From: Nitrospirota bacterium
GTDB taxonomy: Bacteria > Nitrospirota > UBA9217
Length of the DNA stretch: 64,000 bases
NCBI GenBank assembly: GCA_963737155.1
Contig: CAVTRN010000002.1
Span: 2,272,001-2,336,000 of the forward strand
Direction of reading: 5' to 3'
Shown: positions 46,963 through 54,749 of the stretch, piece after piece
How the letters are laid out: each line of letters opens with the position of its first letter
How positions within the stretch are numbered: position 1 is the stretch's first letter
The notes under the pieces: generated by a model
Databases searched by the model: none
Seen by the model: only the letters and a program-made list of their open reading frames with translations
What the model was told of the DNA's origin: nothing
Made by a program: the position numbers and the translations under genes

Positions 46963-48120
46963 TTAAAGTCCAGCATCCTTCTTGAGGGTAGCAGCCTTGT
47001 CAGTCCGCTCCCAGGTGAACTCAGGCTCGGTTCTACCGAAGTGACCATAAGCCGCAGTTTTCTTGTAAATGGGTCTCCTCAGATCAAGCGTTGACATGAT
47101 CCCCTTGGGCGTCATGTCGAAGTTCTTTCTAATTATCTGGACAAGTTTTTCATAGGAAACCTTGCCGGTCCCGAAATCATCCACATGGATTGATACCGGT
47201 TCGGCGACGCCGATGGCGTAAGCGAGTTGGACTTCACATTCGCCAGCTATGCCTGCCGCCACAATATTCTTGGCAACATAGCGGGCCATATAAGATGCCG
47301 AACGATCAACTTTGGTCGGGTCCTTGCCTGAAAAACAACCGCCGCCGTGGCTTCCTACGCCGCCGTAAGTATCCACAATGATCTTGCGGCCGGTGAGGCC
47401 GGTGTCTCCCATGGGACCACCTGTCACGAACCTGCCTGTAGGATTGATGTGGTAGACGATCGTCTTTTCGTCGAGAAGATTTTTCGGGACCACCGGAAGG
47501 ATCACTTTCTCGACAATATCCCTGCGCAGATCCTTGAGGTCGATTTCGGGGCTGTGCTGGCTGGACACTACGATCGTATGGAGCTTGTAAGGTTTTCCGT
47601 CACGATATTCGATGGTCACCTGGGATTTTCCGTCAGGCCTAAGATAGGGTAAGATCTCTTCCTTTCTCACCTCCGAAAGCCGTCGCGTAATCTTGTGAGC
47701 AAGCATGATGGTCATGGGCATAAGTTCGGGAGTCTCATCACAAGCATACCCGAACATCAAACCCTGGTCCCCGGCGCCACCGGTGTCCACGCCCATGGCA
47801 ATGTCAGGAGACTGCGAGTGGACGGATGTGATAACCGCGCAGGTTTCCGCATCAAAACCATACTTGGCCCGAACGTATCCGATTTCCTTGATAGTCTGGC
47901 GGACGATATCCGGGATTTCGACATACCCCTTGGTTGTGATCTCACCTGCAACCATGGCAAGTCCGGTGGTGAGAAGCGTCTCGCAGGCAACGCGACTCAT
48001 AGGATCCACAGTCAATATCGCGTCAAGAACAGCGTCGGAAATCTGATCGGCTATTTTGTCTGGATGTCCCTCGGTAACCGATTCCGAGGTAAAAAGATAG
48101 TTCTTGGTGCAACTGCTCAT
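46963..48120 (-). CDS. metK: S-adenosylmethionine synthetase
   Basis: [28 protein letters not shown]. Confidence 0.98.
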
Positions 48121-48559
48121 CTGGTTTCCTCCTCGTTTTTAAGACCGTAAAAATTTGTTTTTTATAGCATAGATGCCGATTTTGTCAAGAGGAAAATATC
48201 ATTTTTACAAGAGATTCTGCGATACTGCATCGAAGCCGTAAGAGCCACAAGCAAGGTTGAAGAATACATTAACCGGGTTAACATTTCAACATGTTTTTTT
48301 GTATGCCGATACCAGTGTACCGATTTAAAGTTTACAGTTCACTGCCCATGAAGTTAATGACGCAGCCAGGACAATAAGGAAAATTGCCCCCGTTTTGATC
48401 GTATGGAGAGTCTGCAAATTGACGGAAATTCAATTTAAAATTTCTCGGTCATCCACCCAGGGATTTTAGAAGTGTAAAACTGATATGGTTGACAGTTGTC
48501 AATAGGGAAAATAGTCTCCTGCCCCTTTTTTTCAAAGGGTTCGTTGTTTCAATATGTTC

Positions 48560-48745
48560 CAAGGCGTAAGGAGGGACGGGGCCGACTTGTGCGACGTTTG
48601 ATCACTCTGATATTCGCGGGTTTGACCGCAAGACCTTTCTTCGCCGCGGAGCTGCCTCGCTCTATTAACGGAAGTTCGGCATTGCCTTATTCCATAGTTT
48701 GGACGAGGATTCTCCGTAAACGTGGCCGCGTCCCCGCTTATGCCT
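48560..48745 (-). ncRNA. Putative bridge RNA / seekRNA of the IS1111 element
   Basis: Two-loop structured region (stem cctcg/cgagg, then gcgg/ccgc) with segments matching the reconstructed target and donor; boundaries approximate. Confidence 0.7.
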
Positions 48746-49009
48746 TGGAGGTTGTTTATTGTTTGCTTGCGTCCTCCTTTGTTTTGCCTCAGTCGTTTGA
48801 GTCGCCATTGTTACCGGGTGACTTCAAGTTTTTGATCCTGTTCTTTGGAAAGCTCGATGCTTCCGCCTATGTTGACGATTTGAGCGGTTTTTACCTTTGA
48901 GGGTTGATTTTTTCTTTCATAAATGCCCCAGGATTGATTTTCCAGAGACAGTCCATGCCAAGATACCCCCTCAAGTTTTGTGTGACGCCTTGTTCTTGGG
49001 TTAATCTTC

Positions 49010-50122
49010 TTATGCGCTCTGGAGATTCACTTCCCGGGCAATTGCCCATATGAAGCCGCATAGTTCCCTGGCAATGGCGGTTACCACCTTGTTCCTGGGC
49101 TTCCCTTTGGCCGTGAGTTTACGGAACCGTCCGCAGAGACGCACCTGGGCTTTCCAGGAGATATCACAGATATTTTTCGGCAGCCCCTCCTGCCGCTTGA
49201 GGATTACCCGGCTCACTCGGGCCGGCAGACTGTAGGCTTGGGCCGCTTCAATCAATGCGCGCCTGACGTGGGTGTTTCCGGTTTTGGTGATAGCACCCCG
49301 TCTGGTGCTGTCGCCGCTGGAGTATTCGGAAGGGACCAATCCAAGGTATCCCATGAGCTGCTTGGGATTTTCAAAACGTCCCAAGTCTCCGATCTCGGCC
49401 ATGGTGGTCGCGGCAGTTACATCCGCGATGCCGCGTAACGATTGGATTGCGAGTGCAACAGGGGCCGTTCGGCATGTGGGCATAAGCGTTTGAATCTGCT
49501 CCGTAAGCCGGGCCACACGCTCTGCGCATTCCTTCACCGTGTTGATGTACTCTTGCAGCGTGATCTGCTGTGCAGGGTGTGGCATCTTGATATCAGACAA
49601 CCAGCGCATGTGGGCTTGGGTCCATGCGGTTTCTCCAGAGTAACGGTGTCCATGCCGCAGGAGCATCGCGCCTAACCTCTGCCGGGCAGTGCGATGGGCC
49701 TTGACTGCGTCTTCGCGGCATCGGGTCAGGTCTCTCATGGCTTCCTCATCCTCTTGGGGCACGTAAACAGGAGTCAGTTCTCCGGCCCGATACAGCCTGG
49801 CTAGACTTTGCGCGTCACGACGATCGGTCTTGACGCGATCTCCGCTTTTCTTGGGAATCAGCGATGGTGCCACAACCGTGCATTTGTAACCTCTCTTGGT
49901 TAGATGGCGGTATATTTCGTAACCACACGGCCCGGCTTCATAGACGAAGTGCAGTTCTGAGCCTTTGCTTTCAAGCTTTCTGACCATTTTGTCCAATGAC
50001 GCCATGTCGCCGCCGATTTTGCCGTAGTAGCGAACCTCTTGGCTGCCGCCAATTTCGGCCGTTGCTACAGCTATGGAGTTTTTTGCTGAATCGAGTCCTA
50101 CGATTGTGATAGAATCTTTCAT
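49010..50122 (-). CDS. IS110-family DEDD recombinase/transposase (370 aa)
   Basis: VGLD, YEAGPCG, KTDRRDA, GLVPSEYSSG (catalytic Ser), AIAREL; AAGGAGG RBS. Confidence 0.95.
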   Translation of the reverse strand: MKDSITIVGLDSAKNSIAVATAEIGGSQEVRYYGKIGGDMASLDKMVRKLESKGSELHFVYEAGPCGYEIYRHLTKRGYKCTVVAPSLIPKKSGDRVKTDRRDAQSLARLYRAGELTPVYVPQEDEEAMRDLTRCREDAVKAHRTARQRLGAMLLRHGHRYSGETAWTQAHMRWLSDIKMPHPAQQITLQEYINTVKECAERVARLTEQIQTLMPTCRTAPVALAIQSLRGIADVTAATTMAEIGDLGRFENPKQLMGYLGLVPSEYSSGDSTRRGAITKTGNTHVRRALIEAAQAYSLPARVSRVILKRQEGLPKNICDISWKAQVRLCGRFRKLTAKGKPRNKVVTAIARELCGFIWAIAREVNLQSA

Positions 50123-50378
50123 GACCTGCCTCCTTGTTTGTGGCTCTGTATTTGGACACCCATTGCATCCAAGTATAACCCACGGTGACAAGGGGCAGGT
50201 CACTTTTTCAACTGTCAACCATTATGTCTATTGCGGATCTCCAATATAAAAATCAACGAGGAAGGCGTAAATTATTATAGGGCTTTTGAGAACATGATTT
50301 TTTCTCGTTCTTCTTCAGGGGTGGAATACTGTTAATATTTATATTGTATAATATAATTTTATATGATATTACGTATTT

Positions 50379-50945
50379 ATGAAGCTAAGCGTATGGGCAA
50401 AGCAACAAGGTATAACCTATCAAGCGGCATGGAAATGGTGGAAGGCTGGCAAGCTGCCGGTTGAGGCTGAGCAGATGCCTACCGGAACCATCATTATAAA
50501 AGAGCAGAAAACTGCCCAAGGTTCTGTTGCTATTTATGCCCGGGTATCCAGTCATGACCAAAAGAAAGACCTGGACGGGCAGCTCGGGCGGCTTTCCGTA
50601 TATGCCGCTTCCAAAGGGTTGTCAGTTTCAAAAGCGGTGTCTGAGGTTGGATCTGGTCTTAATGGGCACAGGCCAAAACTCATGAAGCTGCTTGCCGACT
50701 CCAACGTCAGTATTATTGTCGCCTTGCATCGTGACCGGCTTATGCGGTTTGGATCTGAGTATGTAGAATCGGCACTTCGAGCTCAAGGTCGTCAACTTAT
50801 TATTGTAGACCAGACCGAGCTAAAGGACGATCTGGTGCAGGACATGATTGAAGTATTGACATCGTTTTGCGCAAGGCTCTACGGACGCCGGTCAGCGGCC
50901 AATAAAGCAAAAAAAGCTCTGGAGGCCATGGAGAATGGCAAGTAA
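50379..50945 (+). CDS. tnpA: IS607 serine recombinase (MerR-like HTH plus resolvase domain)
   Basis: MKLSVWAKQQGITYQAAWKW, IYARVSS, GSGLN, RDRLMRFG, DLVQD, ARLYGRRS. Confidence 0.95.
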   Translation: MKLSVWAKQQGITYQAAWKWWKAGKLPVEAEQMPTGTIIIKEQKTAQGSVAIYARVSSHDQKKDLDGQLGRLSVYAASKGLSVSKAVSEVGSGLNGHRPKLMKLLADSNVSIIVALHRDRLMRFGSEYVESALRAQGRQLIIVDQTELKDDLVQDMIEVLTSFCARLYGRRSAANKAKKALEAMENGK

Positions 50946-52398
50946 TAAGGATAAAATGGGCAAGAGCGGCAAAAGTGAAGCACTTTCTTTTACCGCTCAA
51001 ACTTTGCTGATTGACATGTCTTACCTGGACACAAAGAAGTCTCTTTATCATGTTCTTGACGATATCGGCGACTCATACGGGCACATCAAACGCTCTCTCT
51101 TTAAAGACAGCGTTCGTTCCGGCAACAAACCCATTTCATTCAAAAATGAGTATCTTGTCAGGTATGGTATCACCGCCCGGCAGTTTAACGCTATCCGCTA
51201 CGATCTTGACGGCAATATCAGCTCCGCGGTTGAGGTATTAAAACTACGGATTGAAAAGCTCGAGCACAAAATAAAATCTGCGAGAAAATGGATTAGAACC
51301 AAAGAGAACAGTATCATTGACATACGCAAAGACACGGAATTGTCCGGACATGAGAAAACGACCAGCGTGAAGTCTCTCCGGTTTGCGGTCCACAACAAAA
51401 AACGGAAGCTCCATTCATCGGTGCAGAAACTGGAAAAGCTGAAGTACGATTTGGACAAAGGCCGAATCAGGATTTGCTTTGGGACAAAGAAACTTTTCCA
51501 CAAGCAGTTTAACCTTTCTGAAAACGATTATAAATCCCACAATAACTGGCTGTCTGCCTGGAAGGCTGCCCGAAGCTCTTCATCGTTTTGTCTGGGATCG
51601 AAGGATGAAACGGCCGGCAACCAGACCTGCACGCTTGGCGTCGACGGGTCGCTCAGGATACGGGTCCCAAACTATCTTGCCAAAAAATACGGTAAACACA
51701 TCATGGTGCCTACCGTAACATATCCTTACGGGCAGGAATATATTGAGCAGGCACTCCTGCGCGGCCAGGCAATCACCCACCGGTTTGTCCGTGGCGAGAA
51801 GGGTTGGTATCTGTATTCTTCATTTGATATCCCCCAAAGAGAAACAGTAACCGGGAAACCGCAAGAAATCGGATGTATTGGCGTAGATGCAAACGAAAAA
51901 GAGATTGCTGTTTCCGAGACTGACCGGTTCGGCAATCTTGTCTGGCACACAACGTATCCTGCATGTATAAAAGACAGAACCACGGAACAGACCAAGGCAA
52001 CTTACGGTGATATCTGCGTCGGCATTATCGACCGGTCAATTAAAACCGGGAAACCCGTCGCTCATGAAACTCTTGACTTCGAAAAGAAGAAAGCATCTCT
52101 TAAGGAACAGGGAGTAACGTATGCGCGGATGCTGTCCGGGTTCGCCTATTCCACCTTTTTAAACATGCTTGACCGCAGAGCATTTAAGGCAGGCGTCGGT
52201 GTGCTCTCCGTGAATCCTGCTTACACATCCGTTATCGGCAGAAACAATTATATGTCTCATTATGGCATTTCGCTGCATGAAGCAGCGGCGCTTGCTATTG
52301 CGAGAAGAGTTCAAGGATATTCCGAGTCTCCCATACCAGGCAGAACCGCCTCCCCTCTACCTGTAAGGAATCGAGAGGAGCACATCTGGAAGTTTTAG
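50935..52398 (+). CDS. tnpB: IS607-associated TnpB, zinc-finger-less type
   Basis: RuvC-I IGVDAN, RuvC-II HETLDF, VNPAYTS, HEAAALAIARR; possible premature TAG near the C-terminus. Confidence 0.88.
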   Translation: MASNKDKMGKSGKSEALSFTAQTLLIDMSYLDTKKSLYHVLDDIGDSYGHIKRSLFKDSVRSGNKPISFKNEYLVRYGITARQFNAIRYDLDGNISSAVEVLKLRIEKLEHKIKSARKWIRTKENSIIDIRKDTELSGHEKTTSVKSLRFAVHNKKRKLHSSVQKLEKLKYDLDKGRIRICFGTKKLFHKQFNLSENDYKSHNNWLSAWKAARSSSSFCLGSKDETAGNQTCTLGVDGSLRIRVPNYLAKKYGKHIMVPTVTYPYGQEYIEQALLRGQAITHRFVRGEKGWYLYSSFDIPQRETVTGKPQEIGCIGVDANEKEIAVSETDRFGNLVWHTTYPACIKDRTTEQTKATYGDICVGIIDRSIKTGKPVAHETLDFEKKKASLKEQGVTYARMLSGFAYSTFLNMLDRRAFKAGVGVLSVNPAYTSVIGRNNYMSHYGISLHEAAALAIARRVQGYSESPIPGRTASPLPVRNREEHIWKF

Positions 52399-52739
52399 AG
52401 CAGGATGAAGACTCGGGGAGGTTGTGGAAATCATCACAGTCTCTATCAACGACGGTCCTTACAGGACTCCCCAGGCTGCGCTGAATTGCAGAAGAAGCCA
52501 TCACCCCGTCGACAGCGCAATTCTCCGGGCCACCTGCCAGCAGCAGTCTTGCTGAAAAGGCGCCAGAAGCAATCCCGATCAGCAAACAACGGGACTTGGG
52601 CGAATCAGGGCGGGAATCCCTGACGTTAACCGGCAGCAGCACTGTTCGGCTGCCGTCATAGTTATGAGAAATAAAATACTATGTTTTTAGGAACGGTGGG
52701 CAATATCTTGACAAAAAAATAGCAAAGATCACCAAGAGC

Positions 52740-53022
52740 AACACCAGATAAACATCCGGGCTTAAATGCTGACGAAATCGGAGCAATCAGCATCCTGAAA
52801 AGGTCTCGCCCGGGGCAAATAAATATCTCCCGGAGCGGTGGCCGCTTGGCACAGCCTGCAGTTAACCGGTTTGCCTGGAGGAATACCTGGCCAGCTACAT
52901 AGACCATAAGCGGGAACGCGTCAAACATCTCTGCCACATCTACGAACAGAATCTGCAGCGGCTCCCAGCAGTTGCAAAGCCTGATTCCGGAATCCTCGGC
53001 ATTCAGGCTGGGGGGATTTCAT
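52740..53022 (+). mobile_element. IS200/IS605 remnant C: tnpB 3' tail plus right end / omegaRNA region
   Basis: Clearly similar to 24880-25142 (aaatgctgacgaaatcggagcaatcagcatcctgaaaagg...cagcagttgcaaagcctgatt...); hairpin cctcggcattcaggctggggg then ttTCA. Confidence 0.85.
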
Positions 53023-54749
53023 TTGGTCTGGTCTTCTATCTCTTTGGACAAACGCGCAGGATCAAAGGGCTGCAGTGTGGCATTAAAGCTTGCGATACCG
53101 GCAGGCGGCTGAAGGTAACGAATCTCGAATGGAACCTTATCCTCTGGAGGGATGACCGTCCCCTGCCCCTGAAGAACATTTGCTTTCATTTGTTGGACAA
53201 GTGCTCCACGTTTAGCGAGAATGGCGTAATCACTCCTCGAATAAAGCTGTTTTCCGTCCAACAGTTTTATTTTGTTTATCACCATCCCCCTTGCATCGTA
53301 GACGTCTACGACAACCAACCATGCCGACCGTGGCTTGTTTGTTGAATTTTCAACAACCCCTGATATAAGCAGGTCGCCATTCGGCTCCAGAGACCCTGCA
53401 GCATTCGTAATCCGCAGGCCTCCCGTCGAGATCATATGCGCCGCGGCATCGTTAGATGACTGCTCCGGTGACTGCAGGAACACATATGCACCGAAGCCGC
53501 CCAATACCAAAATAATGGCAGCGGCTACCATGACCATTACCCTTTTGCCAGACCGGTGTGATTTGGTCGGTGACGCACCTATTACAGGAGAGAAAGCTGG
53601 TGACGGGTGATGGGAAGATTCTTTTTTTAACGCCTGTGAAGCGGGACCCCCGGCCGGTTTGGACCGATGCACCGCTTGTGGCCCGGTCTGGAAGCGAGGA
53701 ATCTTTTGAACAGATTGTTGCCCGACATTGGAAATTGCAGATGGTTTCGGCTCCGGCCGGGTCTCCGGTGGAGATATTGACGCCGGCATTACTGCAGACC
53801 CTATTTCAGGTTCTGGATTTTGTTTATGATGGGCCGTTCCGGAAGTTTCGCTTGGCGATGCAATGTCCGATTGCAGTTCAGGCACTGCAGTTGGATCTTC
53901 AGACATTTCTGTTTTCAGTTCCTGTTGAGGTTCCTGCGGTTCTTCGGGTTCCGTCTGAGATACCTCTGTTTTTTCGCCCGTAATTGTCACAATAGGTTCC
54001 GGTTCAGCTGCAGTAATCGAATCCTTAACTGTTGTCTCTGTATCCGGTTTCAGCTGAGGTTCAGACTTTTGCTCAGGCGGAGTTTGAACCGCCTCAAGGG
54101 CCTCGCTGACCGCTGCAATCCCCGCTTCTGGCGCAACCATCATTTGCAAAGTTTCTGTTTGCGGTTCCGTTTGAAGTTCAAGCTGCTGCTCAAAAGCAGG
54201 ATGAACATTCTCTCCGACAGCTGAGGCCGGCGTCATGTCCGATTCCGATTCAGATATTTTCCCCTCTTCAGATTGGGCAATATCAGACTTCTGGCTCTCC
54301 GGTTCTATCTGAGGAGGGAATTCAGTCTCACGCTCCGGAATCGGCTTAACCCGAGAAACAGCCTCCTCTAAGGGGGAACGATCTGGCAGGGATGTATCTT
54401 CGTTTTCAAGGCGGAAATAAGACATCGGAGACTTTAAAAAATCATTTACCGTTGTCCCCATGGTTGGTTCAGTGGCCGTTTTCCCCGAGATCGTACTTAT
54501 TGGTGTTGTTGCAGCCTCAGCAGTTTGTGCCACTGTCAGTCCAATTTCAGATGTTGCCTGACGTGGTTTATTTTCGAACAGGTCTAGCGGGGAAACAGCG
54601 GATTTAGATAGAGTATAGGTCGAAAAATCCTCTATAGTGATTCTTACATATACCCCACATCGTGTACAAACAAACTTGACGCCCTTGCCACTGATCTTAT
54701 CATCGGAGACACGAAATAACTTATGACAATTCCCACACCGGACTTCCAT
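53019..54749 (-). CDS. Zinc-ribbon (MJ0042-type) / DUF3426-like bitopic membrane protein with a long acidic Pro/Glu-rich linker
   Basis: MEVRCGNC..VKFVCTRC; ~350-aa low-complexity linker; one TM helix; periplasmic domain LLISGVVENS. Confidence 0.75.
   Translation of the reverse strand: MEVRCGNCHKLFRVSDDKISGKGVKFVCTRCGVYVRITIEDFSTYTLSKSAVSPLDLFENKPRQATSEIGLTVAQTAEAATTPISTISGKTATEPTMGTTVNDFLKSPMSYFRLENEDTSLPDRSPLEEAVSRVKPIPERETEFPPQIEPESQKSDIAQSEEGKISESESDMTPASAVGENVHPAFEQQLELQTEPQTETLQMMVAPEAGIAAVSEALEAVQTPPEQKSEPQLKPDTETTVKDSITAAEPEPIVTITGEKTEVSQTEPEEPQEPQQELKTEMSEDPTAVPELQSDIASPSETSGTAHHKQNPEPEIGSAVMPASISPPETRPEPKPSAISNVGQQSVQKIPRFQTGPQAVHRSKPAGGPASQALKKESSHHPSPAFSPVIGASPTKSHRSGKRVMVMVAAAIILVLGGFGAYVFLQSPEQSSNDAAAHMISTGGLRITNAAGSLEPNGDLLISGVVENSTNKPRSAWLVVVDVYDARGMVINKIKLLDGKQLYSRSDYAILAKRGALVQQMKANVLQGQGTVIPPEDKVPFEIRYLQPPAGIASFNATLQPFDPARLSKEIEDQTK

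Follow-up and report, generated by a model that had tools for sequence, protein, structure and literature searches.

The 64,000-nucleotide (nt) window analysed here, from contig CAVTRN010000002.1 of a Nitrospirota genome (assembly GCA_963737155.1), carries on its minus strand an insertion sequence that is very probably an intact IS110-family element of the IS1111 group, with a non-coding RNA that reads its target. The anatomy of this element, its ends, its empty site, its target consensus, a covarying RNA structure and the covariation of guide loops with flanking DNA are all visible in the DNA itself; from these we infer that the RNA is transcribed and processed, that it binds the recombinase, that the element forms a circle and that it is active at present. 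An earlier annotation of this stretch, called the original prediction below, had described an RNA-guided recombinase of IS110/IS1111 layout, and this layout matches the published one (PMC11187229, as far as its available text describes it) and agrees with the Pfam and NF033542 assignments and the catalytic positions of the protein. The seekRNA mechanism of IS1111 elements was published in 2024 (Siddiquee et al. 2024, PMC11187229), and for 93% of IS1111 elements the right end is predicted to contain a bridge RNA (Durrant et al. 2024, PMC11208160, in the part available); that the window element is a new example of a mechanism known since 2024, and not a new kind of system, is well supported. It adds to the group a well-delimited, apparently young element from an uncultured soil bacterium.

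Insertion sites and ends of the element

The 4.84 Mb genome (2 contigs) holds six full copies of the element. Compared with the window copy, one is identical, one has 2 differences and three have 5 of 1750, and none of the base differences between copies falls within a guide loop. Read in the orientation of the element, the left flanks of the six copies end in caat, atat, gaat, taat, caat and agat, all six right flanks start with ttt, and AG stands at both ends (CT on the plus strand, as originally noted). The insertion site is xAT|AGTTT in 6/6 copies, always in one orientation relative to xAT-AG-TTT; insertion of other copies at unrelated sites, which the original prediction had named as evidence against itself, is not what these flanks show.

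One copy (L006) interrupts a repeated IS607-like element, the uninterrupted copies of which read ...ggcaagat-AG-tttgggaccc... with a single AG. The element therefore consists of 1748 base pairs (bp) plus one AG, the target is xAT|AGTTT, and no target duplication is made. An empty counterpart of the L006 site lies in the window as well, as the unoccupied target-like sequence GATAGTTTGG at 51667..51676 (minus strand) within the neighbouring IS607-like element. The empty target that had been reconstructed for the window copy is thus confirmed by analogy with the IS607-like site, while a search for an empty allele of the window locus itself found none. The predicted boundaries are upheld independently by the stretch shared among the six copies and by the empty IS607-like site. 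Insertion at a specific site, in one orientation and without target duplication is a feature of the IS1111 group.

These data also decide whether the conserved xAT and TTT beside the copies could be part of the element and not of the target, which would leave no readable specificity. BLAST did prolong the shared stretch by 2-3 bases per side, but the bases further out vary between copies, and the assignment is refuted by the uninterrupted IS607-like copies, in which gat-AG-ttt is contiguous with no element in it; we give this reading virtually no chance. Contigs from other soil samples also carry the element and depart from the window flank exactly at 48477 and 50232. They keep the target AAA and ATT past the element ends, and therefore represent other insertion sites.

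The whole insertion sequence, 50229..48480 on the minus strand, is the span common to the six copies, i.e. the 1748 bp and the one AG, which is unassignable to element or target. The features given below are likewise on the minus strand unless stated otherwise. At the left end, a terminal extension AGACATA (50223..50229) is followed by the subterminal inverted repeat ATGGTTGACAGTTG (50209..50222), a perfect 14-bp repeat with 48498..48485; AG + ACATA at this end is kept in nearly all relatives, where the AG is donor-derived. At the right end, the inverted copy CAACTGTCAACCAT (48485..48498) is followed by the extension ATC and then AG (48480..48484), which here equals the target dinucleotide. 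The repeats thus start 7 nt inside the left end and 3 nt inside the right one (5 nt if AG is counted), and subterminal repeats of 7-17 bp with short extensions are a feature of the IS1111 group. So is the distribution of non-coding DNA, with 530 nt downstream of the recombinase gene vs 107 nt upstream.

RNA structure and covariation of guides with flanks

Within the 3' non-coding region we find a structured RNA (a long seekRNA or bridge RNA) of ~190 nt at 48559..48751, in which a long closing stem surrounds two stem-loops. The minimum free energy fold of a 221-nt piece has a z of -6.08, with 0/200 shuffles equally stable, and folding the whole non-coding region recovers the same fold (z = -4.63). 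The predicted target-binding stem-loop 1 (48655..48708) has a stem CCUCGU/GCGAGG and a symmetric 7x7 internal loop; its closing stem, which the original prediction had also named, is at CCTCG(T) 48708..48703 and (G)CGAGG 48660..48655. The 5' strand of this loop, CCAAACU (48696..48702), is hypervariable in the family and here reads, in reverse complement, as the right half of the target (AG + TTTGG), while the 3' strand, UAAUAGA (48661..48667), equals the left flank AAT, followed by AG and the first base of the element. The predicted donor-binding stem-loop 2 (48591..48647) has an internal loop with ...GGUC on its 5' side and AUAUCAGAGUG... on its 3' side; its 5' end at 48647 is set by counting six bases back from the loop start at 48641, the stem hexamer occurring 3x in the element.

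The motifs originally assigned to the target loop are present at AAACTAT 48700..48694 and AATAG 48666..48662. The AAACT part of the first stands as a guide, while the trailing AT belongs to a conserved inner stem that does not vary with the target in relatives, so that the guide proper is CCAAACT (48702..48696). The readable specificity that had been claimed is borne out, though it is short: the target guide can be read directly and covers about 10 bp, xAT|AGTTTGG. The guide-loop DNA itself (48694-48702, plus strand) contains on the opposite strand the target-like sequence ATAGTTTGG, which fits the guide like the real sites; it is unoccupied in all six copies.

Relatives were collected by scanning one genome per species, which gave 79 loci at 51-91% protein identity, mostly in metagenome-assembled Nitrospirota and deltaproteobacterial-type genomes. 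A recognisable RNA homologue lies downstream of the gene in 69 of the 79 related loci. We aligned 46 of 56 distinct RNAs, leaving out three truncated ones (L044, L076, L085) and seven diverged ones (L071, L078, L079, L082, L084, L086, L091). In this alignment the scaffold is conserved and the first internal loop is hypervariable on both of its strands; RNAalifold again predicts the closing stem and the two outer stems, with 22 of 41 consensus pairs kept via changes on both sides. Searched over window positions 47500-53500, Rfam holds no family for this RNA at E <= 1; its sole hit, sot0042, is located elsewhere and reaches 16 bits against a gathering score of 88.

The evidence that the loops read the target is weak in one copy and strong across the family. 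The target-loop matches of one copy alone are not significant, which speaks against the reading, because when the 530-nt non-coding region was simulated with a first-order Markov model, 13.6% of 20000 trials contained AAACT with ATAG following it by at most 60 nt. The original prediction had asked for statistics on these short matches and for a comparison of loop sequences with insertion sites across homologs, and both support it: the family-wide permutation test described below is clearly positive, and relatives with different loops sit in correspondingly different sites. In this test, the 5' loop strand at a fixed offset was compared with the bases after ...CCATATC (right side) and the 3' loop strand at a fixed offset with the bases before AGACATA (left side), and flanks were shuffled among guide types 20000 times. 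The parser handled 69 of 86 loci; of the 17 failures six were read by eye, and loci without a flank at a contig end were dropped from that side only.

On the right side, 25 distinct 5' strands and 48 distinct right flanks give a reverse-complement match at 3.84 of the 5 positions beyond the dinucleotide, compared with a null mean of 1.53 (standard deviation 0.21, maximum 2.41), and 0/20000 permutations reach the observed value; agreement at positions 3-7 is 0.87, 0.88, 0.95, 0.73 and 0.40. The left side behaves similarly, with 18 distinct 3' strands and 53 left flanks matching at 2.36 of 3 positions vs 1.19 (standard deviation 0.15; 0/20000 permutations) and per-position agreement of 0.93, 0.77 and 0.66. 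Outside the permutation test, the six more-diverged loci match by eye at 6-8 of 8 right-side positions. Some loci fit poorly at the fixed offsets, which again counts against the reading: L022 and L090 match at 4/8 positions, L060 at 2/8 and L075 at 1/8. L060 and L075 do fit after a 1-nt shift, and all four were kept in the test and counted at the fixed offsets. In L060 (L060:1532-1761) the 5' side of the target stem-loop contains a 13-nt duplication, and the guide fits the flank only after the shift.

The same data bear on the possibility that the protein picks the target, for example by way of the inverted repeats and a DNA-binding surface, while the RNA is a scaffold or regulatory leader whose loop matches are incidental. 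Such a reading would fit the shortness of the single-copy matches and the near-invariance of the donor ends and the donor loop, which leaves little covariation. It does not readily explain base complementarity, position by position, in 25 guide types, where mere association could have been inherited; nor does it explain why three loci with proteins about 90% identical (L018, L022, L023) differ in guide and, correspondingly, in site. Moreover, dependence on the seekRNA and its reprogramming have been demonstrated by experiment in other IS1111 members, according to the available text of PMC11187229. We therefore regard choice by the protein as very improbable, and prefer the reading in which the RNA loops select the site.

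A further pair of this kind occurs inside one genome. An intact relative encoding 369 amino acids (aa) (L007) has the guide ACCUACU and sits in the site AG-TAGGT, and judging by sequence it is a natural retargeting partner of the window element; the two genes are about 70% identical and the RNAs 82%. L007 (L007:1502-3046, G000 C1:1719225-1720771) is a single diverged copy with the same ends, and is without the spacer found upstream of the RNA in the window element. Degenerate fragments of further relatives are also present in the genome (L008, L010-L015). Taken together, the relatives amount to a retargeting series already made by nature, with about 30 guide variants. For the mining of tools, the family offers a compact recombinase and a mapped RNA scaffold in which the variable and the fixed loop positions are known.

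Donor loop, joined ends and core dinucleotide

The 3' strand of the donor loop (48597..48613) begins with AUAUCAGA, which equals the right end ATATC, followed by AG and the first base of the left end, i.e. the predicted circle junction, while the 5' strand (48632..48641) contains GUCU, the reverse complement of the left-end AGAC. ATATCAG (right end plus AG) is invariant in the donor loop of all 46 aligned RNAs. The motif ATATCAGA lies at 48613..48606, as originally described, and appears in 0.56% of 20000 Markov-simulated non-coding regions. The GTCT match proposed for the other donor strand is indeed present within 48641..48632, as a weak match of 3-4 nt. In two lineages with other left ends (CCATC, TCATA), GAC takes the place of GUC; there is little donor covariation to test because the ends hardly vary in the family.

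Certain single bases in both loops follow the ends and flanks in a way that resembles the handshake guides of IS621, although numbers are small. The base after AG in the target-loop 3' strand equals the first base of the element in 28/28 guide/site combinations (A 26, C 1, T 1). In the donor loop, most loci have A, the base with which the element starts, as the eighth base of ATATCAGN; among the parsed loci there are six combinations with another base there, and in 6/6 of these it equals the first right-flank base beyond the dinucleotide. The six diverged loci read by eye have C as the eighth base, and the right-flank rule holds in five of them and fails for L084. A likeness to IS621 would thus lie in a post-core base of the target loop that follows the first base of the element and a donor-loop base that often follows the right flank; in IS621 such handshake guides can pair before or after strand exchange, as the part of PMC13626964 available to us reports.

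Joining the ends in silico gives the predicted circle junction, right end ...CCATATC + AG + ACATAATGG..., and with a single AG this places TTGACA (48502..48497) 18 nt from CATAAT (50226..50221), the promoter that the original prediction had described. The -35 hexamer TTGACA at 48497..48502 thus lies in the right end, and the -10 hexamer overlaps the left terminal extension. Among 33 distinct right ends of relatives, 24 have the -35 hexamer at an identical offset and 4 more have it one base nearer. A promoter scan of the integrated copy gave only weak 9-of-12 matches. In the integrated copy, the flank at 50221-50250 places TTTATA 18 nt upstream of CATAAT, which may act as a weak hybrid promoter; the flank/element hybrid TTTATA-N18-CATAAT (50250..50221) has 9 of 12 matches, and we give it no weight as a promoter.

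We propose that the element would excise as a circle in which the right end ...ATATC is joined to the left end AGACATA..., and that the joined ends would create a sigma-70-type promoter, TTGACA-N18-CATAAT, which would drive the recombinase gene and then, by read-through, the 3' non-coding RNA. The RNA (about 190 nt, 48751..48559) would present two internal loops. In the target loop, CCAAACU would pair with the target's right half (AG TTTGG) on the top strand and UAAUAGA with its left half (AAT + AG + A) on the bottom strand; in the donor loop, AUAUCAGA and GUCU would each pair with one strand of the joined ends. Held by this RNA, the recombinase would then exchange strands at AG (CT on the other strand), so that the element would insert in one orientation into xAT|AGTTT(GG), with no target duplication.

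The relatives also bear on the dinucleotide at which strands are exchanged. In 17 relative insertions the left junction is AG and the right junction another dinucleotide (GG in 9, AA in 8), and the 5' strand of the target loop carries CC or UU to match the GG or AA. A single locus, L031, shows GG at either junction, and the reciprocal pattern is seen in no locus. The target of the GG subgroup (L028, L029, L032, L033, L036-L038, L054, L066) is a REP-like palindromic repeat, CT|GGATTCCGGCTTTCGCCGGAATGAC, and 28 of 29 unoccupied REP-like targets read CT|GGATTCC, with no AG. The left AG must therefore come from the element, and the dinucleotide of the target differs from that of the donor. The 15-nt core of this repeat is present in 58 copies in one genome.

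Seen on the CT strand, each junction retains the dinucleotide belonging to the strand that is cut 3' of the core, the outcome expected of top-strand exchange of the IS621 type if the product is then fixed from that strand; for IS621, cleavage of the top strand 3' of the core followed by its exchange is described in the available part of PMC11208158. For an IS110 element, a 2025 preprint (10.1101/2025.10.25.684509), in the portion available, proposes that the top strand decides integration and that the cores do not have to be identical. We put forward tentatively, at somewhat less than an even chance, that in this IS1111 clade the target does not have to share the donor dinucleotide at the crossover, and that integration is settled by top-strand transfer. 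If true, the dinucleotide mismatch is natural evidence on the completion of strand exchange in the family. The window copy, with AG in donor and target alike, is uninformative on this point.

Recombinase, probable activity and relation to known elements

The recombinase gene (49010..50122) encodes 370 aa from an ATG start after AAGGAGG, and has full-length relatives at 51-91% identity. Pfam assigns PF01548 (DEDD_Tnp_IS110) to residues 8-155 (E 6.8e-17) and PF02371 (Transposase_20) to residues 225-298 (E 1.1e-23), and the NCBIfam model NF033542, 'IS110 family RNA-guided transposase', matches with 273.9 bits against a cut-off of 140. Among solved structures, the recombinases of ISCro4 and IS621 are nearest (E about 1e-11). 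In a phmmer alignment to IS621 (8wt6), GIDTAK/GLDSAK, IEA/YEA, KTDxxDA/KTDxxDA and YESG/YSSG line up, and the positions aligned to the IS621 catalytic D/E/D/D and SG are conserved. The nucleophile of IS621 is S241 (PMC11208158, available part). A DEDD domain, a C-terminal Tnp domain, the catalytic residues and RNA loops complementary to target and donor strands are features of the IS110 family that the element shows, and the C-terminal motif GLVPSEYSSG has the IS1111 form GL-P----S(t)G (PMC11187229).

The spacer between the stop codon and the structured RNA (48752..49009) exceeds that of most relatives by ~170-200 nt: the distance from gene to RNA is ~60-90 nt in most of them, ~230 nt in the closest ones (e.g. 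L018) and ~260 nt here. No function was found for the extra spacer sequence (48752-49009), which is overlapped by a 56-aa open reading frame (ORF) at 48891-49061.

The element is probably active, judging from its intact ORF, from six copies at 0-5 differences and from contigs that depart from the flank at the element ends. Several further observations weigh against our interpretation. ATAGTTT occurs 588 times in the genome compared with 628 expected, i.e. the specificity is low, and 41 ATAGTTTGG sites are unoccupied, 6 of them where the element's own guide loop is encoded and 13 within IS607-like copies; only one further IS607-like copy, L006, has an insertion. A longer pairing of the donor-loop 5' strand with the left end was sought, and only GUC(U/A) was found. 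The recombinase is, at 370 aa, outside the 330-350 aa given for IS1111 transposases (PMC11187229), a range that is descriptive and not a strict criterion; the length is supported by the Shine-Dalgarno sequence at the ATG and by relatives that align across residues 1-370. No circle junction was found in four sequencing runs, which consist of assembled contigs without joints. The runs (22 listed, 20 with some of the element) are all in the form of assembled contigs, in which RNA ends are invisible. One of the 20 is recorded as RNA (0.05 of sampled words), and it yielded two contigs with 3 and 10 mismatches that depart from the window within the element. Because of these differences and the departure within the element, the two contigs come from relatives and have no bearing on expression here.

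Could the element then be real but by now inert, a recently expanded family whose RNA or junction promoter, for example, is not made in this host? Only six copies exist in a genome with hundreds of matches to the target over 7 nt and 41 unoccupied ones over 9 nt, and neither circle junction nor RNA was seen in the runs examined. Against this, the ORF is intact and relatives are full-length, the copies differ at 0-5 of 1750 bases with no change in a guide loop, one copy interrupts a young repeat of which many copies are empty, and contigs from other samples show different flanks starting exactly at the element ends. We thus consider an inert element unlikely, and continue to favour an intact element with a target-reading RNA.

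Its closest published counterparts are the seekRNA elements of the IS1111 group (ISEc11, ISKpn4, ISPa11, ISPst6; PMC11187229). As far as the available text describes them, they share with the window element a DEDD recombinase with GL-P----SG, subterminal inverted repeats with short extensions, a long 3' non-coding region, the lack of a target duplication, a circle-junction promoter (predicted here) and natural retargeting between relatives. The order of the matches is also the same, with the top-strand match (CCAAACU here) 5' of the bottom-strand match (UAAUAGA) and the two overlapping at the insertion point. The window element differs in its longer recombinase and its extra pre-RNA spacer; its lineage belongs to uncultured Nitrospirota/Desulfobacterota-type genomes, has its own target and is known from sequence alone. 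The supplements of the IS1111/IS110 papers (seekRNA folds, tables of IS1111 bridge RNAs) may already hold closer relatives.

The likeness to IS621 is more distant. The available parts of PMC11208160 and PMC11208158 describe a bridge RNA that likewise has a target and a donor loop, each reading both strands around CT/AG, and the catalytic D, E, D, D and SG positions align with those of the window recombinase. The protein resembles that of IS621 weakly, over two stretches (E about 1e-11). In contrast to IS621, the window element has long inverted repeats, its RNA is at the other element end, the order of the strand matches is reversed, and target recognition is shorter, covering about 2-3 nt to the left of the 2-nt core, the core itself and 3-5 nt to its right. 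ISPpu9 of Pseudomonas putida, also of the IS110 family, is similarly multi-copy and site-specific with an RNA gene downstream of the recombinase gene, but targets REP sequences (PMC12288879, available part).

The IS607-like element that neighbours the window copy lies at 50318-52697, 88 bp from it. Its products are a serine recombinase (50379-50945; NF033518 at 197.8 bits) and a TnpB-like protein of 487 aa (50935-52398; weak NF040570 match). About 13 IS607-like copies in the genome share the ATAGTTTGG site.

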